DNA from: an uncultured Bacillales bacterium
GTDB taxonomy: Bacteria > Bacillota_I > Bacilli_A > RF39 > UBA660
Reading direction: 5' to 3'
Length of the DNA: 55,078 nt
Assembly: GCA_946408655.1 (NCBI GenBank)
Contig: CAMJTE010000001.1
Coordinates: forward strand, 1 to 55,078
This document shows, one piece after another, positions 9,305 to 35,439 of the stretch. The first letter of the stretch is position 1, and every line of letters begins with the position of its first letter. The position numbers were made by a program, and so were the translations under genes. The notes under the pieces were generated by a model that was not told the origin of the DNA, did no database searches, and was given only the letters and a program-made list of their open reading frames with translations.

Positions 9305-9315
9305 AATTCCTCCAT

Positions 9316-10256: not shown

Positions 10257-10265
10257 ATTTTCCTC

Positions 10266-11621: not shown

Positions 11622-11629
11622 CTCACAAC

Positions 11630-12271
11630 CTATATTTCATTACTAACTTTAATTTTTTTCATTACCATATATACTGCTAATAAAACAATAACAATTCCTG
11701 CACCTAAAATAATATAAATACTATATTTTGATAAAATAAAGCTTTTACTAGCTGTCCCTTTTGCAATCTTTATTTTAATACTAAAATCATTTTTATTCTC
11801 ATTAGTTAAATACCAAGTATATTTATTACCTTTAACTTTATCAGCATTATTACTTACAACTTTATTTTTAGTAATAATATTAATATTCAAATTATAATCA
11901 TACATACAATCTGTCATATCACTTAAATTTATTTCGTAATACTTTTCATCATCCATAATAACCTTTTTCTTAGTAAAGCATTGATTAATTGTATTAGCAT
12001 TTACAAAATCATATGGTTTATAAGTATATTTATAGATTGCAGAAATTATATTACCTTTTTTTTCTATTTTCTTTTCATACATTACATCATTATTAGCATG
12101 AAGAGGATACTGATTAGCATTTATTCTCTTCATGTTATCATCAGTATTTTCAACACTAATTCTAAACTCTTCTTTTATTGAAGAATCATTTATAAATAAA
12201 TAATATTCCTGTTTACATCCTGCTAACTCTAACAAAATTAGAATCAGCACCATAAACTTTATTTTCTTCAT
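11630..12271 (-). CDS. Lipoprotein with C-terminal TM anchor, unknown function
   Basis: 213 aa. Lipobox LLELAGC. C-terminal hydrophobic helix IYIILGAGIVIVLLAVYMV. Confidence 0.55.
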   Translation of the reverse strand: MKKIKFMVLILILLELAGCKQEYYLFINDSSIKEEFRISVENTDDNMKRINANQYPLHANNDVMYEKKIEKKGNIISAIYKYTYKPYDFVNANTINQCFTKKKVIMDDEKYYEINLSDMTDCMYDYNLNINIITKNKVVSNNADKVKGNKYTWYLTNENKNDFSIKIKIAKGTASKSFILSKYSIYIILGAGIVIVLLAVYMVMKKIKVSNEI

Positions 12272-12282
12272 ATTTCACCACA

Positions 12283-13566: not shown

Positions 13567-13578
13567 AATTCCTCACTT

Positions 13579-14799
13579 TTAATAATTTGGTCTATAATAT
13601 CCGTTTATCATACAATCTTTTCTCTCATGCGTAACGAATACAACTCTTTCCGGATCATGGTTTCCTTCAACGGTATAAATATTTTTATCATCTACTGCAT
13701 AAACATATCCAACATGTCGACTGGAGTATCTATCCAAATAACAATCATCACCTGGCTTGCACGTATTCCAGTGAAGTACATCTCCCGACTTTGGAACTGT
13801 TTTAGAATCAGTACATTCGTCTTCATACCAAGTACCATATCCATTCGCAACAGCTCCTCTTGCACCAGGACCAGCTGCACCAGATTTTTCATAGTACTTA
13901 TCTAATCCATTTACTTGGTCAAAAAGCCATGAAACAAACATTCCACACCAATCAGCTTCAAGTCCATACCAATCTTGATATTTTCTTCTTCCAACTCCAT
14001 TTTCCGCTTCCTTTGTTGCAATTTCATTTATTTTATCAATAGTCTGATTACCAGTTTTAGGAACAGGAACAGGTGGTGTACTACTAGATGTTGACTCACC
14101 ATAATAATTAGAACCTTCTGAATTATTATTGCTGCTATTAGCATCATCGCCACTTTGATTACTATACCATTCAGTCAACTCTTCTTCTATTGGATTAGAT
14201 TTTGATGCAAGATATGCTTTACCACCAGAATCTGCAAGAGAAGAAACCATTATAACACAAAAGAAAATTGCCCCAACAAGAATACCTCCGCAAATAAAAA
14301 TAAATAAATATTTCATTTGCCTAGTTGTAATTGCTGTATATCTCGCCTCAGCAGCATCAGGTTTATATTCTTCTCCTAGCTGTTCTGCTCTATTAGCCTC
14401 TTCAACATCATCAGCACTAGCATTAGCTTTATCCCCAACTTTAGACATCAAGTTTTGAAAAAAACCCTTATTTCTAGTACTTTTAATTCTTTCAATCATT
14501 TTAGCCATTTTAGCATATTTGCGGGCTACTGGAATTCTTTCAGCAATCTTAATCGCTTTATCTATATTTTTTCCATTTTGCATCCTTCTAGTAGAATTTC
14601 TACTATTTATACCGGAAATACTACTAGAAGAACGGGTAGTAGAAGAAGTACTCCCACTTATTAATGAACTAGATGAAGATAATCCTCCTCCAGAATCTCG
14701 TTTACCAATGCTACTCCTACGTCCTTGTACAGCAGCATCTTTTCTTAACTGTCCCGTTTGTTTTGCAGTTGAAATTCCTTTAGCTACATTATCTTTCAT
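13579..14799 (-). CDS. Bitopic CHAP-domain peptidoglycan hydrolase (paralog 3) with Ser-rich cytoplasmic N-terminus
   Basis: 406 aa. Ser/Arg-rich N-terminal ~165 aa, then a TM helix (YLFIFICGGILVGAIFFCVIMV). CHAP motifs DWCGMFVSWLFDQ, RHVGYVYAVDD..YTVEGN. C-terminal end INGYYRPNY. Confidence 0.8.
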   Translation of the reverse strand: MKDNVAKGISTAKQTGQLRKDAAVQGRRSSIGKRDSGGGLSSSSSLISGSTSSTTRSSSSISGINSRNSTRRMQNGKNIDKAIKIAERIPVARKYAKMAKMIERIKSTRNKGFFQNLMSKVGDKANASADDVEEANRAEQLGEEYKPDAAEARYTAITTRQMKYLFIFICGGILVGAIFFCVIMVSSLADSGGKAYLASKSNPIEEELTEWYSNQSGDDANSSNNNSEGSNYYGESTSSSTPPVPVPKTGNQTIDKINEIATKEAENGVGRRKYQDWYGLEADWCGMFVSWLFDQVNGLDKYYEKSGAAGPGARGAVANGYGTWYEDECTDSKTVPKSGDVLHWNTCKPGDDCYLDRYSSRHVGYVYAVDDKNIYTVEGNHDPERVVFVTHERKDCMINGYYRPNY

Positions 14800-14816
14800 C
14801 TAAATCACCTCAATTC

Positions 14817-16604
14817 TTATAATCCTCCTCCACTACCAAACGATTCTAATTCAGCATCAGAAGCAATTACATTAATACGCATACGTCTTGATCCGCATAC
14901 AAAGAGTGCTTCTCCTTGTCCATATTGTTTAATACTTTCTGCCTCACTATCATTTAAATCAATCAACCTAGCAAGATCGAATACCGCCTGTTTCTTTAAT
15001 CCCATAACTAAATAATATGAAGCATTATCAAATATAGCTTTACCTTGAGTGATAACAGCAGGATCACTAAAGTCAGTCGGTTGTTGAGTTATTAACATAG
15101 TCCCTGTATTATACTTACGTGCACGTCTTTGCATTTGTGCAAGAAAATCTGCTCCCAACGTATTTCCACCACTTAATAGAACGTGTGCTTCATCAACCAT
15201 CATAACTGTATTAATTTTAGGATTTAAAGTAAGACCCCAAGCATATTTTAATATATTAAAGAATAATGCATTCTTAATATTAGAATCAGCATTCATAACT
15301 TCCCTAATGTTAAATACTATAAAATTACTATTAGGAGAAATTGTTGTATGACCATCAAAATAATACTTCAACTCTCTAACTATAGGTCTAATCTTTAACT
15401 CAAGTCTTTCAAGAACATCTTTTTCTTGTGTTTTTTCTGGCATTGCAAGAATACGACCTTTAATAGTAGCATATACATCTTTAAATGTTGGGTAATCTTC
15501 AGAAGAAAATCTAGTAAAATCACTATTATAGTCAATACCAAAACGTTTATAAGTCTCTTGTACTACTTCACTAAACATATTAACTAAATCCTCAGTAATA
15601 GAAGGATCATAATACTTTAAAAACGCCTTAATAGTTTGTAGAGTACGAGTTAAAACAGTATATCCTAACCCTTGTTTCATCTCCTCTTCATCAGCATCAA
15701 GTACAACCTCAAGTGGATTAATCATACCAAATTCTCCACCCTTACCAAGGTCAATAAAATCTCCTCCGTAAAGATTAACCATATCCTCAAGTTCACCTTC
15801 AGGATCGATTATAACTAACTGATGGCCATTTCTAATATGACTTCTTAACATTATCTTTGCAGCAGTAGATTTTCCACTACCAGAAGTACCTAAAATAATC
15901 ATATTAGCATTATTTCTATTACTTTCTTTTCTTATTTGATATAAGAATTGATTAAATAAAACTACACCACCAGAAAAATCTATACCAAGTAAAGTTCCCA
16001 ATCCTGGATCTTTAATACTATCAAATATAAAAGGATACATCGCAGCCATAGTAGGTGCTGGAATTGGAGTACCAATTCGATCTTCAATATCTTGTTTACC
16101 ATAAATAGGTAGACATGATTTTAAAACTTGATCTTGTTCAAAACGTAGAGGTATAGCCCTAAGTTCCATAGACTCTAAATAATTACGAACTTGTAACTTC
16201 TTTAATTCTAATTCTTCCTTAGTATCAGCAGTAATCATAATATGCATCTGAAAATCATATATCTTAGCTTGACTTGCAGCTAACTCACTTATAAATTGTT
16301 CCAAAGATTCATAATCTTGACGAATTCTTTCTTGAATAGTTCTATCATTTTCATCTTGATATCTTTGCTTTAAGTCAGCAAGTTCTTTATTAAGCATCTT
16401 ACTCATACTACTAAAAGGTAAAGGTATATGCTTAATAACTAACTTAATACCAGACATACTAGTTAAACTAGATAAATAACCTGGATAAATAAATTTTGGA
16501 TAAGAAATAACACTTAGTATAGTTGCATATTTATCACTAACAATAAACTCACTAGGTTTAAATTCAAGCCCCTTAGGAGCAATTTCAGCTTTAATATTAC
16601 TCAT
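14817..16604 (-). CDS. VirB4-type T4SS ATPase, central and C-terminal part
   Basis: 595 aa. Walker A GTSGSGKST, Walker B MMVDEAHVLL, ITQQPTDF. Its start overlaps the upstream stop as ATGA. Confidence 0.85.
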   Translation of the reverse strand: MSNIKAEIAPKGLEFKPSEFIVSDKYATILSVISYPKFIYPGYLSSLTSMSGIKLVIKHIPLPFSSMSKMLNKELADLKQRYQDENDRTIQERIRQDYESLEQFISELAASQAKIYDFQMHIMITADTKEELELKKLQVRNYLESMELRAIPLRFEQDQVLKSCLPIYGKQDIEDRIGTPIPAPTMAAMYPFIFDSIKDPGLGTLLGIDFSGGVVLFNQFLYQIRKESNRNNANMIILGTSGSGKSTAAKIMLRSHIRNGHQLVIIDPEGELEDMVNLYGGDFIDLGKGGEFGMINPLEVVLDADEEEMKQGLGYTVLTRTLQTIKAFLKYYDPSITEDLVNMFSEVVQETYKRFGIDYNSDFTRFSSEDYPTFKDVYATIKGRILAMPEKTQEKDVLERLELKIRPIVRELKYYFDGHTTISPNSNFIVFNIREVMNADSNIKNALFFNILKYAWGLTLNPKINTVMMVDEAHVLLSGGNTLGADFLAQMQRRARKYNTGTMLITQQPTDFSDPAVITQGKAIFDNASYYLVMGLKKQAVFDLARLIDLNDSEAESIKQYGQGEALFVCGSRRMRINVIASDAELESFGSGGGL

Positions 16605-17143
16605 GCAAACACCGTCCCAAAATTAGTGGTCTCTCCACCATTTAAAAAATTATCCAAAATCATTCTTAAATCATCATTACTAGTCTGCGTAGCAGTAAGA
16701 CCTGCAGCAGCAAAATTATTAATTAAATTTCTAATACGTTTCTGAATAATATCAGTATCTTTATGCTTAAACAAAAGATAATACTCAGTATCAACAACAC
16801 TATTTCTAACAAACATAGTAGCCTTATCCATATCCTCAGAAATAATCTTTCTTTGAACAGGCGATACACTAGAATTATATAGAACCTGAAGTTCAGACAA
16901 ATAGACATTAATATCTACCGGCCTATCAGCAGCAATAATCCAAAACTCATAATCAATAACATTATATACAGTCTTTAAATTAGTAATAATCGCACTCTGA
17001 GTAGCAGGATCAAGAATAAAAATATTCCTTGGCATAATCTTCACACCAGATACCTTCATCTTATTATCAAGTTCAATCATCCCACTTGCAATAGATTTAA
17101 CCGGAACATCAGTATATCTACTTTTTATCGTCTTCTTCGCCAT
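16601..17143 (-). CDS. Protein resembling the detached N-terminal domain of Gram-positive VirB4-type ATPases
   Basis: The probable start is MAKKTIK at 17143 (the ORF track start is 17203). The pattern VPVKSI..GMIELDN..VSGVKIMPRNIF.L....Q..II..L matches my recollection of the N-terminus of Tn916 Orf16, ConE and TcpF-type proteins. 181+595 aa is close to the usual ~800 aa. Confidence 0.5.
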   Translation of the reverse strand: MAKKTIKSRYTDVPVKSIASGMIELDNKMKVSGVKIMPRNIFILDPATQSAIITNLKTVYNVIDYEFWIIAADRPVDINVYLSELQVLYNSSVSPVQRKIISEDMDKATMFVRNSVVDTEYYLLFKHKDTDIIQKRIRNLINNFAAAGLTATQTSNDDLRMILDNFLNGGETTNFGTVFA

Positions 17144-17441
17144 CGTTATAACACCAACCTCTCCATATATATTTTTGTCTTGTAGTATAAAACTCCCAAG
17201 CAAGTTTGATCACAGTCCTAATATTATGATAATTAGGAACAGGAAAAACCAAAAATGCACTAATTACCCCCGGAGCCAAAGCAATAATCGCAAATAGAAA
17301 CCCCTCAATAGGTAATATCAGTAACATTAATAATGAAACACCTACACCAACAAGAAATAAAGCCAAATCAAACTTCGTAAACAAACCAAATAGTAACATC
17401 GACTTCTTCGAGTTAGCCGGTATCAAATACATATTATCCAT
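17118..17441 (-). CDS. Small two-TM T4SS membrane protein (VirB3/PrgI/TcpE-like)
   Basis: 107 aa. Two adjacent TM helices and a basic/aromatic C-terminal segment. It lies directly upstream of the VirB4 genes, as in Gram-positive T4SS loci. Confidence 0.5.
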   Translation of the reverse strand: MDNMYLIPANSKKSMLLFGLFTKFDLALFLVGVGVSLLMLLILPIEGFLFAIIALAPGVISAFLVFPVPNYHNIRTVIKLAWEFYTTRQKYIWRGWCYNDGEEDDKK

Positions 17442-17461
17442 ATAGTATCACATCCTTTTTA

Positions 17462-19462
17462 TTATCCAATAGTAGATTTATCAGCTTGAACTTTTCTTTG
17501 TTGTTTTCCAAGATCTTTGATTTTTTGCTCATTGTCTGCAATTTTTTCTCTATCCGAACTAATACTCTGTTCAAGTGCAAAATTATCATTTGTAAATTTA
17601 TTCTTATCCGCATCCAATCCTGCTGCATCCTTCGCAGCATTTGTTCCACGCATAGCAGCATATGCAGAATAATTATTCTTTAAATCATCATCAGTAGCCA
17701 AATTTGCATTTATCCAAGCATCACGTCCAGTTGTATTTGCATATGTTTCAGCATCAAATTTAAGTTCAGATGCCTTGGCACCACGTTCTTGATCATTAGA
17801 CCATTTATATATTTTTCCATTAACGGTTACACTTCCTTTAGAAGCTTTACTAGATAACAATCCATCAGCATTATTTAAATAATCTTTATAAATTTGTCCT
17901 GCTGCGCCACTACCTTGTTTAACTTTTTTTACACCTCGATCTTGGATTTTTTCAATATATCCTGATGCCTTATTATTCTCTGATATTTTTCTCTCGGTAG
18001 GAGCAATTTTTGCCTGCAAGTCTTTATTTTCATTTTCATATTGTTTAACTCGTCTTTCAACTCTAGATTCAGCACCACCAAATCCAGTCTTTTTTGCAAA
18101 TCTTGCACCTAATCTTCCATGCCAAGTTGATCCATTCATTCGAGCATCTCTTAATTTACTTGCATAATCAGCTTGATGTTTTGCAGCATCGCCAAAGCCT
18201 TTACCACTCATAAATCCCGCTGCTGCACCTCTAAGTCCTCTTCCATGCATTGCTCCAATCGCTAATCCACCTGCAGCTCCTGTAATTCTTTTTCCACCTA
18301 CTGCTCCTTCTTCTAATTTCTTAAGTGGATTAAGACTAAACTTACCATCACCTTCAATTTTAACCCCCATATTTTCAAGTATCTTTGGTAATTGTTTTAT
18401 GAACATTAATACTCCAATAATAACAAATATTTTAACCCAACCATTCGTTATTTGTGAACCATTAACTATATCATACATTCCCATATCTGCTACTTTAGTT
18501 ATAATATATATACCAAAGTATAGTGCAAGCAATCTAATAAATAAACTTAAAAATGTTGAAACACACATCTTATACCATTTTGAAAACATGCCATCTTTTC
18601 CACTTTTTGGATCCATATATGATATAACTGGTATTGGATATATTAATTGTAAGAAAGCGAGTTTTACACTTCTAACGCCAATATCTATACAGAATGATAT
18701 TAATAGTAAGCATACTACAACCGCAGTAACGGTTGATAATGGTTTTTTATAATCTATTATAAAGTGTTGATCTGATGGAGTGTCTTCATCTTCTGCATCA
18801 TTTGTAGTTGCTAAAGCTGTCGATGTTCTAAATGTAAGCCCAAGACTTTTATTTGCAATACCATAAGTATAATTTTCTAGATGAGGGCTATTAAGTCCAG
18901 CAGACTCTAAAGCATTAGTACAAGCCTCGCTAAAGTCACCATTTTCATCAACCATGTTCATACATTCTGAAAGACCTTCTACAGAATAATTTGGACTAAA
19001 GAAAGGCATCATTACATAAAATGCCATTCTATTACCCGCTGTATCAAGAATAGTCGATTCTCCTTCACCTTGTATCTTCTCACCTAAAAGGAGTTTAGCA
19101 AGTATATTATCATCTAACACTTTGGCTTGTAAACTAAATGCCATTTGAAAAATATATGGCACTAAAACTAAAAGCACAAGAGATATAACTGAACTTTGAA
19201 TAAGTTTACCAAAGCCTTTGCTTTTATCTGAAAATTCATCTGGATTAACCACATATGTAATCAACGAAAAAGAAACTTTGAACAGCATAAAAATTCCAAG
19301 TAATATTTCTATTCTAGCTGCAAAAGACGCTATATCTCCTTGAGATAATATAGACGTTCTTGAAATAGCTATTAATAAATCATATAGAGTTCCTATAAAA
19401 TTAAACAAAGTGGTATCTAATGACATAAAGAATCTAACCATTAATTTTTCAAACCACAACAT
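17462..19462 (-). CDS. Polytopic T4SS channel protein (VirB6/TrbL/TcpH/ConG-like)
   Basis: 666 aa. About 6-7 TM helices in the first ~370 aa, then a Gly-rich amphipathic stretch and a coiled-coil C-terminal region. The position is typical for a VirB6 analogue. Confidence 0.55.
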   Translation of the reverse strand: MLWFEKLMVRFFMSLDTTLFNFIGTLYDLLIAISRTSILSQGDIASFAARIEILLGIFMLFKVSFSLITYVVNPDEFSDKSKGFGKLIQSSVISLVLLVLVPYIFQMAFSLQAKVLDDNILAKLLLGEKIQGEGESTILDTAGNRMAFYVMMPFFSPNYSVEGLSECMNMVDENGDFSEACTNALESAGLNSPHLENYTYGIANKSLGLTFRTSTALATTNDAEDEDTPSDQHFIIDYKKPLSTVTAVVVCLLLISFCIDIGVRSVKLAFLQLIYPIPVISYMDPKSGKDGMFSKWYKMCVSTFLSLFIRLLALYFGIYIITKVADMGMYDIVNGSQITNGWVKIFVIIGVLMFIKQLPKILENMGVKIEGDGKFSLNPLKKLEEGAVGGKRITGAAGGLAIGAMHGRGLRGAAAGFMSGKGFGDAAKHQADYASKLRDARMNGSTWHGRLGARFAKKTGFGGAESRVERRVKQYENENKDLQAKIAPTERKISENNKASGYIEKIQDRGVKKVKQGSGAAGQIYKDYLNNADGLLSSKASKGSVTVNGKIYKWSNDQERGAKASELKFDAETYANTTGRDAWINANLATDDDLKNNYSAYAAMRGTNAAKDAAGLDADKNKFTNDNFALEQSISSDREKIADNEQKIKDLGKQQRKVQADKSTIG

Positions 19463-19516
19463 AGTTATTCACCGCTTCCTTTTTCATAATTTTTTACAAT
19501 AAATCATTCTGATAGA

Positions 19517-19545
19517 ATTATATCAAAAAAGGCATAAAAAAACAA
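19517..19545 (-). promoter_or_regulatory. Candidate promoter for the VirB6-to-VirD4 operon
   Basis: Minus strand reads TTGTTT, 17 nt, then TGaTATAAT (extended -10). The -35 overlaps the upstream terminator stem. Confidence 0.3.
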
Positions 19546-19559
19546 GCATGAAGCTTGCT
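19534..19559 (-). terminator. Intrinsic terminator (probably partial) after the fourth VirB2-like gene
   Basis: Minus strand reads agcaagc-ttcat-gcttgtt, a 7-bp stem that includes one G-U pair. It is followed by a T-rich run. Confidence 0.5.
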
Positions 19560-19565
19560 AAAAAA

Positions 19566-19958
19566 TTAATTACGTAATTGACAAGATGCCGATGTATTAT
19601 CACTTGCATTACCACTTACAAAGCAGTTAAAACAACTCATAATACTGTTTTCATCAGTTCCTGCAACAAATCTAACAACTAATTGAACTAATGATACTAC
19701 AAAGAATACGATAACTGCGGCAATTAATCTTTTTATAAAAGTAGTTTGATTTTTCTTAATTTCATCTTCCTTACCAGCAATAACCGCCTTAGCTAAGTCT
19801 AACATACCAAAAATAATTAATAAAATTGGAACAATAATTTTAATTAACATTACGATTGTAGATACTACATATGGAAACATACCACTAAATACAAAATTAT
19901 TAATATTTCCACAAGAATACTCTAACCCCATATCAACTTTTGCCAAAATTTCAAACAT
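19566..19958 (-). CDS. VirB2/TrbC-like two-TM protein, paralog 4 (no cleavable signal peptide)
   Basis: 130 aa. TM1 (IKIIVPILLIIFGMLDL), charged loop AGKEDEIKKNQTTFIKR, TM2, and a Cys-rich tail (SCFNCF...SC). It has its own promoter and terminator. Confidence 0.5.
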   Translation of the reverse strand: MFEILAKVDMGLEYSCGNINNFVFSGMFPYVVSTIVMLIKIIVPILLIIFGMLDLAKAVIAGKEDEIKKNQTTFIKRLIAAVIVFFVVSLVQLVVRFVAGTDENSIMSCFNCFVSGNASDNTSASCQLRN

Positions 19959-19982
19959 ATCTTTTCCTCCTAAACTAATTTA

Positions 19983-20011
19983 ATTATATATCTTAATAAC
20001 AATTTTGTCAA
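19983..20011 (-). promoter_or_regulatory. Consensus sigma-A promoter for paralog 4
   Basis: Minus strand reads TTGACA (20011-20006), an exact 17-nt spacer, then TATAAT (19988-19983). AGGAGG RBS downstream. Confidence 0.75.
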
Positions 20012-20017
20012 TATACG

Positions 20018-21100
20018 CTATTTTATTATATAAGGATCTTTTTCAGTTCCACTACCAGATATAAATAGCTCTTCTCCATCAATATAAATAACCCAATGAT
20101 ACTTTTGATATCTGCTTGTCTCTGCTAACTCTACACCAATAGAATTAATTAAATAAGCTACCGAATCATCTTCAGATACTGTATCAACTGTCCAACTATA
20201 ATCTATAAAATTAGCAATATAATTATAATTTGTACATGACAAATCACCAATTTTCTTACAATTTGCATCATAACTTGCCTGTAAGAAATCAGTTATACTT
20301 GGTAAAGTAATTAACTGTCCATCCAATGTTTCATTACATTCAGTAGTAATACCAAGACTTAAATCTTCTTTAGAACGTTTTCCTATACATACACTATGAG
20401 GAACAATTTTACCTCTAATATCATTATTCATTGTTTTATCATTTTTATAATCATATAGTAATCTATCTATAATTACACTATCTTTATAATTATTAATACC
20501 AGTATAAGAATTCTTATTTATATTATACTTATTATCCCAGTTAAAAGACATATCTTGAGCTTTTTCTTTAATAAGTTTTAAATTACCATTAGAATCTATC
20601 TTAATTATTCTATATATAGTTCCATAGAAAGATAAATAATTCTTAACCTTATTACCTTTAAAAATGTATTCATCCCCAATTTTATAAAGACCAGAACCAG
20701 CTTCAACAACATCTTTCATTAAATAATCTTTTAAGTACTCAGTCTTATAATTATCACATTCTAAATATGGAATATATGAATAATATTTACCTTCAGTAGT
20801 ACTATTATTCTTAACAACAACACTACCACTACAACTTGAATCCTTCAAAGCTTTATCTGGACTTTTTAATCCATCATCAATTAAATTATCAAGTTTTATA
20901 ATAGTACTCTTACCATTCTTAGGTAAGATTTTATGATTTTTAGCATAATTTTTTGCCCTATTCATCATCATTTCTTCATATTTAGAATATGATTTTTTAC
21001 TGCTACAACCTCTAAGAAGTGCCATAAGTAAAATAAACAGTAAGGGCAACGATATTAATACAACACACGTTACCAAAAATTTTGAATCTAACTTTTTCAT
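20018..21100 (-). CDS. Exported (possibly lipid-anchored) protein of unknown function
   Basis: Start reassigned to MKKLDSKF at 21100, where AGGTGA lies 4 nt upstream (track start 21130). Hydrophobic N-terminus ending LLRGC. About 320 aa extracytoplasmic with several Cys. Confidence 0.55.
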   Translation of the reverse strand: MKKLDSKFLVTCVVLISLPLLFILLMALLRGCSSKKSYSKYEEMMMNRAKNYAKNHKILPKNGKSTIIKLDNLIDDGLKSPDKALKDSSCSGSVVVKNNSTTEGKYYSYIPYLECDNYKTEYLKDYLMKDVVEAGSGLYKIGDEYIFKGNKVKNYLSFYGTIYRIIKIDSNGNLKLIKEKAQDMSFNWDNKYNINKNSYTGINNYKDSVIIDRLLYDYKNDKTMNNDIRGKIVPHSVCIGKRSKEDLSLGITTECNETLDGQLITLPSITDFLQASYDANCKKIGDLSCTNYNYIANFIDYSWTVDTVSEDDSVAYLINSIGVELAETSRYQKYHWVIYIDGEELFISGSGTEKDPYIIK

Positions 21101-21108
21101 TAAATCAC

Positions 21109-21549
21109 CTAGTCTTCTTGGGTTGCGCAAGTATCACCAGTACCATTAATAAAACAGTTAACACAATTTATCATGTCTTTAGATTTTCCAGAATCCGCAA
21201 CAAAACTTATAAGTAATTTAACTATTACAAAGACAAAGAATACAATTGCAGCGGCAATAAGTCTTTTTACAAAAGTCATCTGATTCTTTTTTATTTCGTC
21301 TTCTTTACCCGCAATAACAGCTTTAATTAAATCAATCATACCAAATACAACAAGAACAACTGGCACAACAATTTGAATAACCAAAAAAATTATATGAACT
21401 GTATCTGCAATTTTTGCATCAATTAAAAGTTCATGCTCACCTTTGGTTAAGAAATTATCACAACCAAGAATACTTTTAGTAGCATACACAGGACTTGCCA
21501 TAAGACAACACATAACAATTAACAATAAATAACTTAATTTCTTTTTCAT
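21109..21549 (-). CDS. VirB2/TrbC-like two-TM protein, paralog 3
   Basis: 146 aa. Signal peptide ending PVYA. TM1, loop AGKEDEIKKNQMTFVKR, TM2, tail NCVNCFINGTGDTC. Confidence 0.5.
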   Translation of the reverse strand: MKKKLSYLLLIVMCCLMASPVYATKSILGCDNFLTKGEHELLIDAKIADTVHIIFLVIQIVVPVVLVVFGMIDLIKAVIAGKEDEIKKNQMTFVKRLIAAAIVFFVFVIVKLLISFVADSGKSKDMINCVNCFINGTGDTCATQED

Positions 21550-21560
21550 AAATTCACTCC

Positions 21561-21968
21561 TTACTTACAATTACTTGCGTTATTTATAAAACATTCAACG
21601 CATCCCCAAATTCCATCACTATCTCCGCCTATCGCACTAATAAGCAGTTTAACAATTACAAAAACAAAGAACACAAGTGCACCCATTACTAATCTTTTAA
21701 TAAACATTCCTTGGGCTTTTTTAATATCATCATCTTTACTTGATGATACAGCTTTTAAAAAATCAATAGATCCCATTATTATTAATATAACTGGTACTGC
21801 TATTTGCAATACATTAATCACCGTGTTAGATAACTGTAAAACCTTATATGGTAAATTCTTAATACTACCACAGGTAACATAAGTACCTTTCGCATACACA
21901 GGCGTAGATAATATAAAAGCAATTATTAGTGTAATAATATATTTAAATTTATTTTTCATAATCACCAC
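21561..21968 (-). CDS. VirB2/TrbC-like two-TM protein, paralog 2
   Basis: 135 aa. Signal peptide ending PVYA. TM1, loop SSKDDDIKKAQGMFIKR, TM2, tail GCVECFINNASNC. Confidence 0.5.
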   Translation of the reverse strand: MVIMKNKFKYIITLIIAFILSTPVYAKGTYVTCGSIKNLPYKVLQLSNTVINVLQIAVPVILIIMGSIDFLKAVSSSKDDDIKKAQGMFIKRLVMGALVFFVFVIVKLLISAIGGDSDGIWGCVECFINNASNCK

Positions 21969-22436
21969 TTACTCAGTTACACAACTCTTATTATTTAAAA
22001 AGCAATTCGCACACTTCATAATATTTCCTTTATCACTCGCATCTGCAACCACACTAATTAACAATTTAACAATTACAAAGACAAAGAATACAAGCGCACC
22101 TACAATTAACTTTTTAACAAAAGCCATTTGTGCTTTTTTTATTTCATCTTCTTTACCAGCAGTAACAGATCTAATTAGTGTAATCATTCCCATTATAATT
22201 AATATTATTGGAACAACAACTTGAATAATATTATAAGCTATATTTACAGTCTTTACAATGCTCTTTGGGACATGCTTAACCATCCCTCCACCACAGCTTA
22301 CCTTATCCGTATTCAAGTTTTCATATGACTCACCAGATAAATCAACATTTTCATCTGCTGCATAAACAACATTTCTCACACCAAATTGTACCACAAATAA
22401 TGCGATAATTGCAAATAAAACATATATTTTCTTCAT
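21969..22436 (-). CDS. VirB2/TrbC-like two-TM protein, paralog 1
   Basis: 155 aa. Signal peptide ending VVYA. TM1, loop AGKEDEIKKAQMAFVKK, TM2, tail KCANCFLNNKSC. Confidence 0.5.
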   Translation of the reverse strand: MKKIYVLFAIIALFVVQFGVRNVVYAADENVDLSGESYENLNTDKVSCGGGMVKHVPKSIVKTVNIAYNIIQVVVPIILIIMGMITLIRSVTAGKEDEIKKAQMAFVKKLIVGALVFFVFVIVKLLISVVADASDKGNIMKCANCFLNNKSCVTE

Positions 22437-23342: not shown

Positions 23343-23855
23343 CTAATTGTAATATGTCCTAGTCTCTCCATAAACAGGAGTAGAAAACAAACTACCTATA
23401 CCAAGAACATTTATATTTAAATGACTAAAAGTAACAACAGTATAATAATATTCACTGCTACTTAAAGTAGTTTTATAAACACAATATCCATTATTACTAG
23501 AATTAGTATATACTGGTTCAGTCTTTGGATATTCAGCCTCTTCATCCGTATCTTTATCTAGTGCTTTCTTTTCTACTTTAGCAAATATCTTACCATTACA
23601 TAAATCAGAATCATTCAAATGATAACCCATGTTTTTTAAAGTACTCACAATACTATTAATACAAGAATCATCTTCAAAACAAGTTTTACCAGTACTACTA
23701 TTTACAATATAATATCTATCAAGTGCACTTATTATATTATTCTTAGCCTTATAAGCACTAGTATACATATTAGAAGCAATTAGTATAGCCCCAACTATAC
23801 CTACTACAATAATAACTATATATACAAGCATAGTACTTCCAACCGCATCTTTCAT
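23343..23855 (-). CDS. Pseudopilin/TadE-F-like protein with MKDAVG leader
   Basis: 170 aa. N-terminus is MKDAVG then STMLVYIVIIVVGIVGAILI. The globular domain has 4 Cys. Confidence 0.5.
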   Translation of the reverse strand: MKDAVGSTMLVYIVIIVVGIVGAILIASNMYTSAYKAKNNIISALDRYYIVNSSTGKTCFEDDSCINSIVSTLKNMGYHLNDSDLCNGKIFAKVEKKALDKDTDEEAEYPKTEPVYTNSSNNGYCVYKTTLSSSEYYYTVVTFSHLNINVLGIGSLFSTPVYGETRTYYN

Positions 23856-23869
23856 GCGTCACCTCCTAA

Positions 23870-24382
23870 TTAACAAGTAGAACCATAACAATTATACATA
23901 GTAGACGTACGAGAAGACATTTTGATAGGTACATTAAAATTAAATAAACCAAAATCTAAATTCATACCAGTAGTAACTTTATAACTATAATATTCATAAT
24001 CAGGTGCAGAATCACTAGATTTATCATTAATAATATATACACAGTATCCTCTATAACCTAATTCACTTGCACTAGCAGAATTATTATCATTAATAATAGA
24101 TCCATCAGCCTTAACAAGCCTTACCTTATTATTATTAAAATCATCATTTCCAACACTACATCCACTATTACTTCTGGTATAACCATAACTAGTAAGTCTC
24201 TTTTCAATTTCTTCCTTAGAATAGTCATTAAATCCACCATAGTCCTCAATAGCAGCCGTCAAACTATTATTAATCTTATAAGACTTATAATAACTCAAAG
24301 TAGATATAATAAATCCAAACATAATTATAACAAAAAAAATAACTACATAAATAGCAGAAACAGCCCCAGTACTTTCTTTCAT
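23870..24382 (-). CDS. Pseudopilin/TadE-F-like protein with MKESTG leader
   Basis: 170 aa. N-terminus is MKESTG then AVSAIYVVIFFVIIMFGFII. The globular domain contains Cys residues. Confidence 0.5.
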   Translation of the reverse strand: MKESTGAVSAIYVVIFFVIIMFGFIISTLSYYKSYKINNSLTAAIEDYGGFNDYSKEEIEKRLTSYGYTRSNSGCSVGNDDFNNNKVRLVKADGSIINDNNSASASELGYRGYCVYIINDKSSDSAPDYEYYSYKVTTGMNLDFGLFNFNVPIKMSSRTSTMYNCYGSTC

Positions 24383-24385: not shown

Positions 24386-24601
24386 TTAGTTACACGCTCC
24401 ATCAGAGTCCATTGTACACTTTTGACCCAAATCATTATGACAACTGCCATCATAATAAGAATAACCAGCGTTTTCACAATTAGCTCTTTTGCTTTGATTA
24501 GACAATAGAGTTGTCATAATAACAACTAATGTCGCTATTACTCCTGCAATCAAAGTAATAGTTATAATTGTCATTGCAGATTCTCCAACTGCTTCTTTCA
24601 T
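24386..24601 (-). CDS. Small pilin-like protein (Flp-sized) with MKEAVG leader and 4-Cys C-terminus
   Basis: Start reassigned to the second ATG at 24601. GGAG abuts the first ATG and sits 9 nt before the second. 71 aa: MKEAVG then a hydrophobic helix. Tail is CENAGYSYYDGSCHNDLGQKCTMDSDGAC. Confidence 0.55.
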   Translation of the reverse strand: MKEAVGESAMTIITITLIAGVIATLVVIMTTLLSNQSKRANCENAGYSYYDGSCHNDLGQKCTMDSDGACN

Positions 24602-24685
24602 TAAAATCATCTCCTATTACATTTATATCAGAAGAAAAGTAATTAAAGTAATATACCTTTCTTCTAATACAAATATCATTTTGTA

Positions 24686-24886
24686 TTAGCTATTTTTTAC
24701 ACATTTTCCACTTGATAAAGTATATCCATCTGGACAAACATCTACTGGATTCTCACTAATATTGGCAGTGCTTGAATTTGCCTTATTAGTCATAATTAAT
24801 ACAATTGCTGCTGCTGCTGCCAATAGACCAACTATTACTACTATAGTGACAACTGTCATACTTCCTTCTCCTGTTGCTTCCTTCAT
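24686..24886 (-). CDS. Small pilin-like protein (Flp-sized) with MKEATG leader and 2-Cys C-terminus
   Basis: 66 aa. MKEATG then EGSMTVVTIVVIVGLLAAAAAIVLIM. Tail is CPDGYTLSSGKC. Strong AGGAGGTGA RBS. First gene after a consensus promoter. Confidence 0.6.
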   Translation of the reverse strand: MKEATGEGSMTVVTIVVIVGLLAAAAAIVLIMTNKANSSTANISENPVDVCPDGYTLSSGKCVKNS

Positions 24887-26877: not shown

Positions 26878-26898
26878 TATATCACCAGAATTAATTTT

Positions 26899-28001: not shown

Positions 28002-28793
28002 TTATATCATGAGAGTCATTGACATGAAAAGCAACATCATTACTCCTCCACCTGTTGCGAATAACATTACCATGGTTTTCTTTTCCATCTTATCTAATCT
28101 TTCTTGATACTTTATTTCTCTTGCTTTATTTTGTAGTGTTGATACCATACGAGAGAATGCCATTACTTGTTCTTGTTTATTATCTTGTGAACCAAGACTT
28201 AATCTATATAATAGTCTCATCATTCTCATTGAATCTCTTACTGGGTATTCTTCTGCAAAATCTGTATATGGTTTTATTGATGAATCTCCAGAATCAATTT
28301 TAGCGACTAATTTTAAAAGTCCTCTTTTAAATACTTCTGGTGCGGTTTCTATGCTTCTTGATAAAGCAATAGGAACTGTATAGTGTTGAACAAGTATTTC
28401 TAGTCCTTTTAAATAGTATGGTAATAATAAATCTATAGTATGCAAATGCGCTTTATACATTCTCTTTAGTTTTGCATATGGCATTTTAAATACTAATAGA
28501 GCAAGTACTACAGCAAGAAATATAACGATAAAGGCAAATTTACCTGCTAGTATTGATAAGAATAATACTATTAGAAATGTTAATACTGCATTTCTAATTC
28601 TTTTTTCAAACATTTCTTCTAGATCTATATCTTCATCTTCATATCTTAATCTTACTAAGAATTCATAATCATCTTCTCCTATATTTCTAAATATAGGAGA
28701 TAATTCTTTAATAAATTTATTACCATCAAATACTTTATTATATATAAATATAAATACTAAAGTAGCAGTAACTAATACATATATTAATCCCAT
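28002..28793 (-). CDS. TadC-like pilus platform protein (T2SSF-type)
   Basis: 263 aa. N-terminal TM, a central TM pair, a ~120-aa cytoplasmic helical domain and a C-terminal TM. The topology and pairing with the upstream paralog match TadB/TadC. Confidence 0.6.
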   Translation of the reverse strand: MGLIYVLVTATLVFIFIYNKVFDGNKFIKELSPIFRNIGEDDYEFLVRLRYEDEDIDLEEMFEKRIRNAVLTFLIVLFLSILAGKFAFIVIFLAVVLALLVFKMPYAKLKRMYKAHLHTIDLLLPYYLKGLEILVQHYTVPIALSRSIETAPEVFKRGLLKLVAKIDSGDSSIKPYTDFAEEYPVRDSMRMMRLLYRLSLGSQDNKQEQVMAFSRMVSTLQNKAREIKYQERLDKMEKKTMVMLFATGGGVMMLLFMSMTLMI

Positions 28794-29692
28794 TATTCTG
28801 CACCTACATTCTCATTATAATATTTTTCTCCACTTAGCAAGAAATATGAATTCATAAATACTAATAAATGTATGAGTAATTTTAAATACCACATAGATAA
28901 TAGTTGTGAATAAGTGTCTCCTAATAACAACTGTATTAAAGCAATCATACCATAAAGCATAATACCAAATCTAATAAATTTCTTATGGAAGTTTGCTCTA
29001 TCTATTCTATCCCTATATACAGCCTCTACTAGCATATCTATATCAAGACTCATATTTTCTAGAGATTCTTGTGAATCTTTCGCACCTTCATTAGTTATTT
29101 GTAAGAATAACTGATGCATATTTTTAACCATGTAATAATCATACTTGTTTTGAAAATACTCAAGTGATTGATTAATAGTTCCATTTTTATAAGCTAAATC
29201 TATCATTACTTTAACATCGCTTTTTACCGGATCTTCTAATACACCTGATTCATATACACCTTCTAAAGATTTAACAAATGACTGGGATGTTTGAAAATCC
29301 AAGATAATATTTGTTGTATATGTTTGTACTTGTTCAAAGATAAATTCACTATATAACCTTTTGCATCTTAAGTATTCTAAGTATGGAATAAAAGCTATAG
29401 CTATACCTGCATATATTATCGCAACTACTATATCATAAAAATATAAAAATCCCATCGCACCTGCAATACCACCAAAGATAACTATTTGTCTTAAATAATC
29501 TTTAAATTTGTAGTTTTGACCTAACTGTCTTATTTTTACTCTAATCTCTTTATAAGTATAAGGTGCGATTTTATCATATACTGGGCCTAAACTTCCAGTA
29601 ATCTCTTTATATACATCTTTACCACCAGTACTTCTATAAAAAACTATAAACAATAGTATTACACCTACTAGTAAAAATATTATCTGTATCAT
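28793..29692 (-). CDS. TadB-like pilus platform protein (T2SSF-type)
   Basis: Start reassigned to MIQIIFLL at 29692, where AGGAGGTG lies 5 nt upstream (track start 29710). Same TM/cytoplasmic-domain/TM topology as TadB. Confidence 0.6.
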   Translation of the reverse strand: MIQIIFLLVGVILLFIVFYRSTGGKDVYKEITGSLGPVYDKIAPYTYKEIRVKIRQLGQNYKFKDYLRQIVIFGGIAGAMGFLYFYDIVVAIIYAGIAIAFIPYLEYLRCKRLYSEFIFEQVQTYTTNIILDFQTSQSFVKSLEGVYESGVLEDPVKSDVKVMIDLAYKNGTINQSLEYFQNKYDYYMVKNMHQLFLQITNEGAKDSQESLENMSLDIDMLVEAVYRDRIDRANFHKKFIRFGIMLYGMIALIQLLLGDTYSQLLSMWYLKLLIHLLVFMNSYFLLSGEKYYNENVGAE

Positions 29693-29702
29693 ATCGCACC
29701 TC

Positions 29703-30818
29703 CTATTCAAAAATTATTTGATTATTATTAATTGTTGAATTTACACTTTCTGTATTATTGTCATCTGTTGGAATAATAATATTCCTGTCCATTCTAACTC
29801 CTTGAGCTTCCAAATAATCAAATAAATACTTACTTGGATTTTTTCTAGTAATATGTCCATCTGGAGTCTTTCTATAAATAGTATTATACTTAGCCTCATT
29901 ATCTTCAGTTACATAAAACTCTGTTACTTCTGCAATTTCTCTTATCATTCTATGTGTAGTAGCATCTTGATAAGCACGAATATATACACCTAGTTGAATA
30001 TATCTATAAATAGATTTTAAGAATTGATCTATATCTTGATTAGTCTCAAGTAATGAATACATTCTGTTTGGTATAGATGCAGCCTTATCAGCATGTATTG
30101 TCGATAAAATGTAATGTCCAGATGATATTGAGTTTCTAACCGCCATTACAGCTTCTGCACTTCTTACCTCTGATAGTAATATCCATTTAGGATTCTGTCT
30201 CATACAAGTAACAAGAACATCTGAATAACTAGCAATGTTATTTGTCTTCATAGCTACTATATCTCGTTCTGGAAATATTCTATCAAGATGGAGTTCTAGA
30301 GTATCTTCAATTGTAATAATTTTCTCATCTACTTTAGTATTGGCAGCTAAATACTTAATAAATTCAGTCTTACCACTACCAGTTTCTCCACATACCATAA
30401 TATTAGTATGACCGTGCACACATTGTATTAAAAAGTTAAGAATATCTTCAGTAATATATTTTTCCTGTATTATTTTATTTCTCTCTAACCTTATTTTAGC
30501 TGGTGTCTTTCTTATAACACATGCAATACCATTTCTAGCTATTGAGTCGTGAACAAAATTAATACGAAGTTGTTCTGATTCACTATCCAAAAAAGGATGA
30601 GCTGCATTGAAACTTCTACCTACTACATTCGCACATTGAAAAGCTAGCTTGTCCATAAAATTATCATCAATACCAGGATTATTTACTCTAAATGTACCAT
30701 GGGATAATGTTCTAAGCCAAAGTTGTCCACCGTTATCATAAGATATATCTGTAACATCATCGTTATCTAGGTATTGCTGTAAAGGTCCAAAGTCCATTTC
30801 ATCAAAAACATTATCCAC
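29703..30818 (-). CDS. TadA/CpaF-type secretion ATPase (T2SSE/VirB11 superfamily)
   Basis: 371 aa. Walker A GETGSGKTE, Asp box ITIEDTLEL, Walker B ILLSEVRSAEA, His box STIHA. GTG start preceded by GAGGTG. Confidence 0.85.
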   Translation of the reverse strand: MDNVFDEMDFGPLQQYLDNDDVTDISYDNGGQLWLRTLSHGTFRVNNPGIDDNFMDKLAFQCANVVGRSFNAAHPFLDSESEQLRINFVHDSIARNGIACVIRKTPAKIRLERNKIIQEKYITEDILNFLIQCVHGHTNIMVCGETGSGKTEFIKYLAANTKVDEKIITIEDTLELHLDRIFPERDIVAMKTNNIASYSDVLVTCMRQNPKWILLSEVRSAEAVMAVRNSISSGHYILSTIHADKAASIPNRMYSLLETNQDIDQFLKSIYRYIQLGVYIRAYQDATTHRMIREIAEVTEFYVTEDNEAKYNTIYRKTPDGHITRKNPSKYLFDYLEAQGVRMDRNIIIPTDDNNTESVNSTINNNQIIFE

Positions 30819-30852
30819 AAGTCACACCTCGATTTCCTTTTTATTCTTCTAA

Positions 30853-31719
30853 TTATCCAACTAGATTTCTACTATTATTTGTTGTATTTGTTGTATCAGT
30901 AGTATTAGTTGTAGTTTCACTATTTTGTGCTTTTACAAATTCTTCAACTGCTTCATCACTAACTGTACTTGTTGCATTATTTATATAGTCTTGTAATGTT
31001 TTACTGCTAACAAGTGTTCCTGCTTTAGAAACGTATTTTTGTCCTTTAGGTTCTATAACTAAATCAATTCCTTGTCCTTTTAAATATTCAGCACGTTTTA
31101 ATAATTTATAATTATCACGTGATAATCCAAATGCTAAATATGATGGACTACCAATATTAGCAGGATCGGCAAAAACGTTATGTCCTGCATTATCATGTAC
31201 AGCAAGTACTTTTATACTACTAAATAATTTACCATACATAATATTACCATTAGCATCACGAGCTGACATATATATATCTATATGTGAATCAGGAAGTATT
31301 GAGTTACCAAAAGTTGATACCATATCAACCTTGTAGTAATATGCTTCTTCTCCTTTAGATATATCTATCTTTTCAATCCAATTACCTGGAATTGAATCTT
31401 CAGTAGCTAACCATTCTGCATAAATCATTGAACCTGCAGGTATAGTTACATTAATATTAGTATACTTACCTACTATTAAAGATGCATTTCTAACTACATT
31501 TTCTGTAAGTCCTACTTTCGATATTTTCTTAATCTGTAACATATCACCTGTAATCTTAGTTTGTGCAGGAATTGTTTTTTTGGCAACCGGTATACTTACT
31601 GGATTTACTGTTTGATTAATCGTTACATTAAACCCAATAAATAGCAAAAATACTATTAATATAATTCCTAATATAGTTACTGTATTTTTATTTCTTAAAA
31701 ATTTACTTAATCCTCTCAT
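30853..31719 (-). CDS. CpaB/RcpC-like Flp pilus assembly protein
   Basis: Start reassigned to MRGLSKF at 31719, where AAGGAG lies 5 nt upstream. N-terminal TM, SAF-like segment (IPAQTKITGDMLQIKKI...IPAGSMIY), RcpC-like segment (DIYMSA...IKVLAV). Thr/Asn-rich tail. Confidence 0.7.
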   Translation of the reverse strand: MRGLSKFLRNKNTVTILGIILIVFLLFIGFNVTINQTVNPVSIPVAKKTIPAQTKITGDMLQIKKISKVGLTENVVRNASLIVGKYTNINVTIPAGSMIYAEWLATEDSIPGNWIEKIDISKGEEAYYYKVDMVSTFGNSILPDSHIDIYMSARDANGNIMYGKLFSSIKVLAVHDNAGHNVFADPANIGSPSYLAFGLSRDNYKLLKRAEYLKGQGIDLVIEPKGQKYVSKAGTLVSSKTLQDYINNATSTVSDEAVEEFVKAQNSETTTNTTDTTNTTNNSRNLVG

Positions 31720-31730
31720 ATTAACTCCTT

Positions 31731-32123
31731 TCAATTCTTAGTTTCTAATATAGCATCTACTTTATTAACTAGATCAAATTTTAATACATCACTAGTTCCT
31801 TTTTCAGTAGAAGATACTTTAATACTTACCTTAGGTGGTTCTTCATTAATATCATATATATCTATTTGATAATTTCTAGATAAAGATGCATTTTCCGCAA
31901 ATCTTCTTAAAAATATTTCAATAAATTTATCTTTATCTATTTTTACAATTCCATTTTCTAGTGATTCTTTATCTACTGCATCATACATTGCAGCCTCAGT
32001 AGTTTCCCGAAGAAGTGTGTAATTATGTTGATCAGCAGTAGAAACACGTTGCATAAAGAAGATAAATACTATCGCAATTATCCCAAACATTATTATGAAA
32101 TATGCCCAAATCGAATCTTTCAT
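31731..32123 (-). CDS. Small N-terminally anchored protein (possible minor pilin or TadE/G-like)
   Basis: 130 aa. MKDSIW then a hydrophobic helix. Its start abuts the stop of the upstream 828-aa gene. Confidence 0.35.
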   Translation of the reverse strand: MKDSIWAYFIIMFGIIAIVFIFFMQRVSTADQHNYTLLRETTEAAMYDAVDKESLENGIVKIDKDKFIEIFLRRFAENASLSRNYQIDIYDINEEPPKVSIKVSSTEKGTSDVLKFDLVNKVDAILETKN

Positions 32124-35436: not shown

Positions 35437-35439
35437 GTT

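Follow-up and report, generated by a model that had tools for sequence, protein, structure and literature searches.

The window analysed here, the whole stretch of 55,078 nucleotides from an uncultured Bacillales bacterium (contig CAMJTE010000001.1, assembly GCA_946408655.1), carries a gene cluster in which components of a type IV secretion system (T4SS) stand beside those of a Tad-like pilus. This article concerns a short two-cysteine hairpin that occurs in two proteins of that cluster, once as the C-terminal tail of a 66-residue Tad/Flp-like small pilin (pilin1), and repeatedly between the membrane anchor and the catalytic domain of a 612-residue peptidoglycan hydrolase with a CHAP domain (CHAPrep). 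The cluster spans positions 3898 to 34610, all on the minus strand apart from an inserted 339-residue open reading frame (ORF), and its features are collected in Table 1. An initial annotation of the window had placed both proteins correctly, in coordinates and in sequence, and had put the number of repeats in the hydrolase at 8-16, which agrees with the 16 Cys-pair units counted here, nine with ten residues between the cysteines (C-x10-C) and seven with nine (C-x9-C). Its remark that a second small pilin (pilin2) ends in a different, four-cysteine tail also holds.

The pilin1 ORF, which translates as MKEATGEGSMTVVTIVVIVGLLAAAAAIVLIMTNKANSSTANISENPVDVCPDGYTLSSGKCVKNS, is preceded by a GAGGTG ribosome-binding site 8 nt upstream of its start and is flanked by TadB/C-like and TadE-like genes. 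The N-terminus is invariant among its homologues (n=16), and the C-terminal loop CPDGYTLSSGKC has the features that define the hairpin family described below, namely a Cys spacing of 10, Pro at loop position 2, Gly at position 4 and an aromatic residue at position 5. Searches of pilin1 against Pfam and NCBIfam gave no match at E<=0.01, with both Flp_Fap (PF04964) and cEGF (PF12662) unmatched, and no NCBIfam model passed its threshold when CHAPrep, the pilins and the Tad-like proteins were scanned. The prepilin-peptidase motif G/XXXXEY is absent from pilin1, in which G6 is followed by EGSMTV, without Glu-Tyr.

CHAPrep is an accessory, fourth wall hydrolase of the locus and is restricted to a few close relatives, a hairpin-array hydrolase having been seen only in the window, L004 and L005/L006 (L numbers denote related loci and P numbers related proteins). 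Its Cys pairs fall within residues 57-256 for the C-x10-C units and 268-410 for the C-x9-C units. The C-x10-C units carry Gly-Trp at loop positions 4-5 in eight of nine cases, with Pro at position 2 in seven of those eight; unit 3 has Ile there (CIKGW) and the ninth unit reads CSSGG. Candidate catalytic Cys (DWCAAF) and His (SSHIG) residues are visible in the sequence. There is no cEGF and no Lectin_C match to CHAPrep, and a UL45 lectin-like match stays below threshold. The orthologues P0001 and P0002 lie in the same place, after VirD4, and a stalk of the same type bears an M23 peptidase head in place of CHAP in P0003 and P0004. The KIPGTTNQY.C junction between the two unit types is conserved on the P0003/P0004 stalk, so that the catalytic domain is swapped while the stalk is constant. 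The C-x9-C units are likewise conserved in P0001-P0004, and do not score with the hidden Markov model (HMM) of the C-x10-C family.

Table 1. Features of the hairpin-bearing proteins and of the surrounding T4SS and Tad-like cluster (TM, transmembrane).
Feature	Position	Strand	Remarks
CHAPrep, membrane-anchored peptidoglycan hydrolase, 612 aa	3898..5736	minus	N-terminal TM anchor, 16 hairpin units, CHAP domain
CHAP catalytic domain, residues 458-577	4006..4365	minus	PF05257, 31.8 bits against a cut-off of 26
Seven C-x9-C units, residues 266-412	4501..4941	minus	22-aa period, consensus NNYKCSVGNLDGTQCY
Nine C-x10-C units, residues 55-258	4963..5574	minus	Exact 23-aa period, consensus YsCPxGWxxxGxKCYRSATNTPx
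T4SS core: VirD4, M23+lysozyme protein, two further CHAP proteins, VirB4, TrbL/VirB6-like, four VirB2-like paralogues	7157..22436	minus	
Two 170-aa TadE-like pseudopilin candidates	23343..24382	minus	MK[ED][AS]xG leader as in the pilins; conserved in related loci; no Pfam match, putative assignment
Pilin2, second small pilin	24386..24610	minus	4-Cys tail CENAGYSYYDGSC...CTMDSDGAC; common pilin type of the locus family
Pilin1, Tad/Flp-like small pilin, 66 aa	24686..24886	minus	Leader MKEATG, hydrophobic helix residues 7-41, C-terminal hairpin
Single C-x10-C hairpin unit of pilin1, loop C51-P-D-G-Y-T-L-S-S-G-K-C62	24701..24736	minus	Family HMM 25.6 bits; hydrolase-unit HMM 13.0 bits
Tad-like assembly genes: TadC/TadB-like (putative), CpaF-type ATPase, CpaB/RcpC-like	28002..31734	minus	T2SSE PF00437 92 bits; SAF, RcpC weak

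Likeness of the pilin tail to the hydrolase units

The pilin tail and the units of CHAPrep have in common a CPDG-aromatic start, a spacing of 10 residues between the cysteines and a terminal Lys-Cys. The spacing claimed in the initial annotation thus stands in these respects; the search pattern proposed with it, C-P-x-G-[WYF]-x(3,4)-G-x-x-C, misses the pilin itself, in which the glycine lies one residue closer to the second cysteine (G-K-C as against G-x-K-C). When the pattern CPxG[WYF]x6C is searched for in all six frames of the window, it occurs seven times in CHAPrep, once in pilin1 and nowhere else, the expectation from the amino-acid composition of the window being 3e-4 matches in 17,060 residues. 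A C-x10-C loop would have Pro at position 2, Gly at 4 and an aromatic residue at 5 with a probability of about 1.3e-4, and among 168 such loops in cluster-homologous proteins from 169 sources, all 26 that read CPxG[WYF] belong to hairpin-array proteins or to pilin1. A profile HMM built from the eight W-type units of CHAPrep gives pilin1 13.0 bits (E 0.026 among 8338 ORFs, noise beginning at 6.7 bits), which makes it the first match that lacks a repeat array, directly behind all of the multi-unit proteins. An accident of composition was considered as the source of the motif and was rejected on the six-frame scan and the composition-based expectation.

Single CHAPrep units are identical to the pilin tail at 5-7 of 19 amino-acid positions, and the positions expected to be exposed differ, with Trp and basic residues in the hydrolase and Tyr-Thr-Leu-Ser-Ser in the pilin. 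At the nucleotide level the tail matches individual units at 24-33 of 57 positions, below the 32-44 of 57 at which units match one another, and it shares no word longer than 9 nt with them. Had gene conversion or shuffling recently carried a unit from one of the two genes to the other, this would account for the CPDG start that pilin1 shares identically with units 1 and 6 and for the equal loop length, but this explanation is close to refuted: nucleotide identity lies below that between units, matches at third positions do not exceed expectation, and Y-type units of other proteins resemble the pilin tail more closely than the CHAPrep units do. The module shuffling within the window's own system that the initial annotation had offered as one possibility therefore finds no counterpart in the DNA. 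By sequence, the tail and the units appear to be members of one module family with no sign of copying between them, since nucleotide identity is low and the shared words are short.

Structure prediction is compatible with this membership. An AlphaFold2 (AF2) model of pilin1, made from a 17-sequence alignment, consists of a helix at residues 7-41 and two strands at 55-58 and 61-64, with a mean predicted local distance difference test (pLDDT) score of 77 and about 80 in the tail. In the model of CHAPrep residues 46-300, every unit has strands at C+5..7 and C+10..14, in the register seen in pilin1. Both are accordingly predicted to be beta-hairpins in one register, at moderate confidence for pilin1 and at low confidence for units 1-6 of CHAPrep.

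A widespread hairpin family and other pilin tails

A profile of two-unit CHAPrep segments, searched against 1.84 billion representative proteins, retrieved 646 clusters (at 50% identity) with E<=1e-3, of which 224 reached E<=1e-10. In 71 of these family proteins 541 units were delimited, with the consensus TYSCPSGYTLSGTKCVKTT; exactly ten residues separate the cysteines in 412 of the 541 CPxG...C loops. A search with CHAPrep recovers the orthologues with the same repeats (P0001-P0004), together with unrelated proteins rich in YSCPSGYTLNGTKC units (P0007, P0008, P0013) and Ser/Thr kinases with such ectodomains. Single members of the family carry TraN, N_methyl (type IV pilin-like), protein kinase or other domains, and there is a large family of membrane-anchored surface proteins with hairpin units that do not adjoin any T4SS; the P0008 gene, for example, sits amid housekeeping genes with no T4SS nearby. 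In P0135, hairpin units follow a canonical type IV prepilin leader (KGFTLIELLAVI, N_methyl), and many other members combine an N-terminal anchor with an 'MKDAAKxYYT' domain of unknown function. The unit has no curated model, and the nearest Pfam family is cEGF, which is matched by 24 of the 71 members.

An HMM of the family, built from 531 distinct units of the 71 proteins found with the hydrolase-unit profile and including no pilin, gives the pilin1 tail 25.6 bits (E 2e-6 among 8338 ORFs). No CHAPrep unit scores as high (13.2-23.1 bits for each C-x10-C unit), and the best units of multi-unit proteins reach 25-30 bits, a range that includes the pilin tail, with noise below about 8 bits. Nine of the 12 loop positions of the tail conform to the family consensus, as do the flanking positions after the second cysteine (V/K/x/S). 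By score, pilin1 stands nearer to the consensus of unrelated family proteins than to the W-type units of the hydrolase in its own cluster (25.6 as against 13.0 bits). The proposal of a disulfide-closed hairpin common to both proteins thus keeps its structural part, the same register being predicted and the units forming one family statistically, and loses its specificity, the link being a generic one. The initial annotation had itself held that a motif common in unrelated secreted proteins of the same genome would refute its interpretation; at the scale of databases, the motif is common in unrelated secreted proteins.

The further step taken there, to a common ligand such as a cell-wall polymer on the recipient or target cell that both pilus and hydrolase recognize through the hairpin, is accordingly not supported. 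Both proteins are extracellular parts of one locus with the same class of module, both belong to its fastest-diverging genes, as would be expected of specificity determinants, and both gene types were found only in the window's sub-clade (among 160 VirB4-anchored loci, L009-L168, and the contigs fetched for pilin or hydrolase homologues). We nevertheless consider a shared ligand improbable, because the exposed positions differ, the module occurs in many unrelated proteins (Ser/Thr kinases, TraN-like and type IV pilin-like proteins among the 646 clusters) and so implies no ligand, the hydrolase is absent from most relatives, and the stalk bears either CHAP or M23 heads, which fits a scaffold. 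L010, moreover, has the pilin hairpin without the array: it keeps the CPDG...C loop (CPDGKNYDANTRTC) despite having lost the hydrolase array. At the hydrolase position of that locus (L010:20388-20810) lies a 140-residue ORF that comprises only the C-terminal half of CHAP and a dockerin-like DxNxDGxxD motif, without Cys and without an anchor, a decayed remnant of the hairpin-array hydrolase. The window apart, no locus was found to combine a CPxG-tailed pilin with an intact array; the two genes are 17-19 kb apart, and the VirB4-anchored stretches covered both positions only in L010. A search for VirD4 homologues located no cluster on the pilin-bearing contigs, and a scan of metagenomes for the pairing yielded one close relative only (L089), which was too short.

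Small pilins with an MKEAxGE leader are present throughout the locus family, with 80 distinct sequences from 77 loci (e.g., L011:1429-1656, L026 and L050). Apart from a recurrent first loop, C(C)xxxGGxWxxGxC, their tails are hypervariable, and the number of cysteines in them is always even (0, 2, 4 or 6), which makes a disulfide in pilin1 plausible. Cysteine loops with an aromatic residue and a Gly turn are present in 74 of the 80, the other six being free of Cys; among these 74 tails the first loop is C-x11-C in 56, reads GGxW in 55 and starts with CPxG in four, all of them in the window's sub-clade. The first loop of pilin2, CENAGYSYYDGSC, is the same kind of aromatic hairpin as that of pilin1, one residue longer. 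Within the sub-clade, the C-x10-C form is confined to pilin1 of the window, P0019 and P0020, most members having C-x12-C (CPDGYTWNSPTKQC and similar).

These tails give substance to the main rival view, that the loop of pilin1 evolved in place from an ancestral Cys-loop tail, without shared ancestry with the repeat units or recruitment of a module, CPxG-aromatic...G-x-C being simply a good solution for a stapled beta-hairpin. The ubiquity of aromatic Gly-turn loops among the small pilins, the C-x12-C spacing of the nearest relatives, the alignment of the pilin2 loop to that of pilin1 with a single gap, and the recurrence of the motif in eukaryotic EGF and C-type lectin domains all fit such convergence. 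We hold it to be possible and nonetheless on the unlikely side: the pilin1 tail fits the family consensus in loop and flanks and scores like a genuine unit, the rarity of the CPxG start shows that it is not the default of the pilin family, and units elsewhere look like additions to a conserved protein end and not like the products of drift.

The last point refers to one VirB2-like paralogue in each of two loci, which carries a unit-like tail (TCPSGTVLENGVCVIK in L022:4425-4922, at 18.4 bits, and TCPDGMTINGNGTACLK in L011:4654-5142) beyond its conserved C-terminus. The extra unit is placed after the C.SCFIN..C end, and the orthologue in the window (21109-21549) is without it. A unit-like tail, ACPEGYKMNDNNQCVQEQ, is also found in the distant L167, on a leaderless copy of the pilin. 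That copy (L167:2346-2507) has the CPEGYKMNDNNQC tail and no MKEATGE leader, the upstream frame reading ...FCLN-MTVITVV, and could be a truncated gene or a silent cassette. The recurrence of single units on the C-termini of different filament subunits in L011, L022 and L167 lends support, at the level of sequence, to a looser kind of shuffling. A bolder extension would have the units act as portable specificity tips, grafted repeatedly on the C-termini of filament subunits (Tad-like in the sub-clade and in L167, VirB2-like in L011 and L022) and strung into hydrolase stalks, where they would set which partner or prey wall the chromosomal T4SS and Tad apparatus engages, with the knob and the array of one genome tuned to the same target; this we regard as improbable.

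The T4SS and Tad-like locus and its evolutionary tempo

The Tad-like part of the cluster has the same gene order in L001 and related loci; its TadB/C and TadE assignments are putative ones, made from position and topology. The two 170-residue TadE-like proteins have Tyr at +6 (G/AVSAIY and G/STMLVY). This gene company bears on another account of the small ORFs, by which they would be secreted or membrane-anchored Cys-rich peptides of a bacteriocin-like kind, with the hairpin as the active part, and not pilins. Pilin2 does show a weak match to the YxzE-like putative bacteriocin family PF25184 (20.4 bits against a cut-off of 40), and Flp_Fap and the canonical G/XXXXEY motif are both missing, as described above. 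The peptide account is nonetheless very unlikely, as every relative has these genes between TadB/C-like and TadE-like ones and next to those for a CpaF-type ATPase and a CpaB-like protein, the MK[ED][AS]xG leader is shared with the 170-residue pseudopilin-like proteins, and the predicted helix of about 35 residues is pilin-like.

In addition to the genes of Table 1, the cluster encodes a DUF5411 protein and a 294-residue protein. The four VirB2-like paralogues (19566-19958, 21109-21549, 21561-21968 and 21969-22436) each end in a Cys-rich C.NCF[ILV][NS]..C tail, and three of the four give weak matches to T4SS_pilin (PF18895), with none for 21561-21968. The first protein of the cluster (32124-34610), of 828 residues, contains a dockerin type I module; in L001 (2442-5804 and 12470-13135) such modules are present in the large first protein and also in a VirB2-like paralogue. 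One would not expect them in a gene cluster for secretion or pili. Two insertions are peculiar to the window genome. One (5940-6959, plus strand) is the 339-residue ORF, with a CxxC...CxxC arrangement and no Pfam match, between CHAPrep and VirD4, and is absent there in L004 and L005; the other (25517-27900, minus strand) comprises an AbiEii toxin, a 179-residue partner and a YhcG/DUF1016 nuclease between the pilin and TadC-like genes, and is absent in L001. Further along the window lies an unrelated island (45652-54634), which is probably a defence element that has become integrated; it encodes a large serine recombinase, an nSTAND3+Mrr protein and a GmrSD-like nuclease.

On both sides the cluster is bordered by housekeeping genes that are conserved in relatives, RNase R, RmuC and rhodanese on one flank (334-3873) and ScpA, ScpB and BacA on the other (34723-39059). 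Domain scans of the cluster ORFs found no match to relaxase or integrase families between 3898 and 34610, and 25 kb of the cluster had no counterpart among the PLSDB plasmids in a megablast search. On these two negative searches, together with the conserved flanks, we rejected the possibility of a plasmid or of a recently gained integrative and conjugative element. From its sequence context, the cluster looks like a lineage-wide chromosomal apparatus and not a mobile element. Our survey of the literature found nothing relevant on a Tad and T4SS locus in RF39-like bacteria or on a Cys hairpin repeat in Firmicute pilins.

VirB4 relatives at 74-98% identity are found in at least 572 stretches of species-representative genomes, and also in 521 metagenome stretches, while a search with VirD4 returns 7402 clusters at E<=1e-100. 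The VirB4-bearing relatives are nearly all metagenome-assembled genomes of uncultured gut 'Bacilli', 'Tenericutes' or 'Acholeplasma sp. CAG:878', names from which we infer an RF39-like placement. In most of these loci VirD4 is followed directly by rhodanese and RmuC, with no hairpin-array hydrolase. The machinery of the locus is almost frozen and its surface parts change fast. Compared with the window, L009 is 96-98% identical in VirB4, the TadB-like and TadC-like proteins (these three at 97-98%), p107 and p200 and 95% identical in p294, as against 55-59% in the two pilins, 50% in VirB6 and 68% in one VirB2-like paralogue; in L004, VirB4 is 98% and VirD4 90% identical, as against 43% for the hairpin-array hydrolase. 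The wall hydrolases share the strong mosaic, being 37-64% identical between the window and L009, L004, L010 or L001, as against 95-98% for the cytoplasmic and membrane machinery. This pattern of divergence in the sequences suggests diversifying selection or cassette replacement of the surface parts.

Interpretation and likeness to known systems

The reading that we prefer, with a probability of roughly 0.58, takes the pilin tail for a generic disulfide-stapled module, present in one copy, that forms the exposed knob of a minimal Tad-like pilin, and the hydrolase stalk for a structure built of the same class of module; the kinship of the two would be one of module family and of common location in the fast-changing surface of the locus, and not a private one. 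This reading is founded on sequence membership, the predicted hairpin and the distribution of the units, from which we infer the disulfide, the surface exposure and the roles as knob and stalk. The last 16-19 residues of pilin1 would be a single instance of an extracellular mini-module that is widespread yet lacks a curated model, a disulfide-closed beta-hairpin of about 12 residues with the consensus Y-x-C-P-x-G-[YWF]-x-L-x-G-x-x-C. The N-terminal hydrophobic helix would presumably pack inside a Tad-like filament, which would leave the stapled hairpin as the one folded element of the protein in contact with solvent. Displayed as a repeating knob on the filament surface, it may determine how stable the filament is, what its surface chemistry is and probably also its adhesion or antigenic specificity. 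In CHAPrep, the nine units and the seven shorter ones would together make a stalk, rigid, resistant to proteases and possibly wall-binding, that reaches from the membrane anchor to the CHAP head and keeps the catalytic domain extended within the wall or past it. Both proteins are part of the rapidly changing surface layer of a T4SS and Tad locus that is otherwise extremely conserved.

Several observations weigh against this reading. The unit is too short for homology to be separated from convergence, and the 25.6 bits of the pilin tail would be insignificant at the scale of the whole protein library; neither Flp_Fap nor cEGF reaches threshold on pilin1 or CHAPrep. Since the closest pilin relatives carry C-x12-C loops, the C-x10-C form could be a recent two-codon change within an older pilin loop. 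An A24-family prepilin peptidase was not found among the window ORFs scanned (it may be encoded elsewhere in the genome), and a thiol-disulfide oxidoreductase was not identified among them either; the C51-C62 disulfide, processing after G6, polymerization and surface exposure of pilin1 are presumed steps. In the CHAPrep model, pLDDT is 72-90 for units 7-9 and low for units 1-6, and when the two AF2 models were compared with PDB entries by Foldseek, nothing matched at E<0.5. The comparison returned only local hairpin overlaps, of the pilin1 tail with EGF and TNFR cysteine-rich modules (0.4-0.7 Å over 15-17 residues, not significant) and of CHAPrep units with the N-termini of C-type lectins. Unrelated folds in the two contexts would, by the terms of the initial annotation, have told against a shared hairpin; the predicted folds agree in hairpin and register, although with the low model confidence and the lack of a significant Foldseek match this comparison is a weak one and does not decide relatedness.

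The closest solved counterpart of the unit is the N-terminal hairpin of long-form C-type lectin domains, closed by the C0-C0' disulfide, to which the W-type profile aligns in a search against the PDB. It shares with the W-type units of CHAPrep the elements C-P-x-G-W-x6-C-Y and C-x10-C, as in botrocetin (DCPSGWSSYEGNCYK) and the yolk sac IgY receptor precursor (9wyt_J, SCPEGWERHGGYCYK). In the lectins, however, the hairpin is one strand pair of a domain of about 120 residues, of which no other segment aligns, whereas the units of the window stand alone or in tandem without a Lectin_C match, and the likeness is probably structural and not evidence of descent. A similar pattern, CPxGYxLxxDGxxC, characterizes the C-terminal hairpin of cEGF/EGF domains (PF12662); an EGF domain has three disulfides, whereas each unit here would have one, and neither protein of the window reaches the Pfam threshold.

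Among filament systems, pilin1 resembles the Flp/Tad (type IVc) pilins in its very small size, its Gly-terminated leader and its long hydrophobic helix, and also in its gene company of a CpaF-type ATPase, TadB/C-like and CpaB-like proteins and TadE-like pseudopilins. It differs from them in having no Flp_Fap match and no Glu-Tyr past the putative cleavage site, and its locus is fused to a T4SS of Gram-positive type. To our knowledge, classical Flp pilins lack a Cys-stapled C-terminal tail. A C-terminal Cys-Cys loop is known from the D-region of type IVa pilins, where it is exposed on the filament, varies between strains and is used for adhesion; these pilins are proteins of 140-170 residues with a globular head and an N-methyl-Phe leader. 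Pilin1 is comparable in its C-terminal loop and, unlike them, consists of helix and loop only. CHAPrep has its analogues in the PrgK, TcpG and CwlT types of Gram-positive conjugation, which are likewise membrane-anchored CHAP, M23 or lysozyme enzymes encoded within a T4SS cluster, and is distinguished from them by its 16-unit Cys hairpin stalk and by being an accessory fourth hydrolase.

Because the hairpin is a generic module of many bacterial surface proteins, it shows no private link between pilin and hydrolase, and a shared Cys hairpin alone does not tie a pilus to a hydrolase, the hairpin being a common structural module. There is, then, a sizeable family of bacterial hairpin-repeat proteins without a curated model, which is at present caught only as spurious cEGF. 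Pilin1, as a minimal Tad-like pilin with nothing but a helix and one stapled hairpin, offers a simple system for the specification of a filament surface. The surrounding locus is a more striking feature than the hairpin itself, as it joins a Tad-like pilus to a Gram-positive T4SS and four wall hydrolases, with no relaxase detected, and is present in hundreds of uncultured, small-genome gut Bacilli. Conserved machinery combined with a fast-changing surface suggests a lineage-defining apparatus for cell-cell contact or the handling of DNA.

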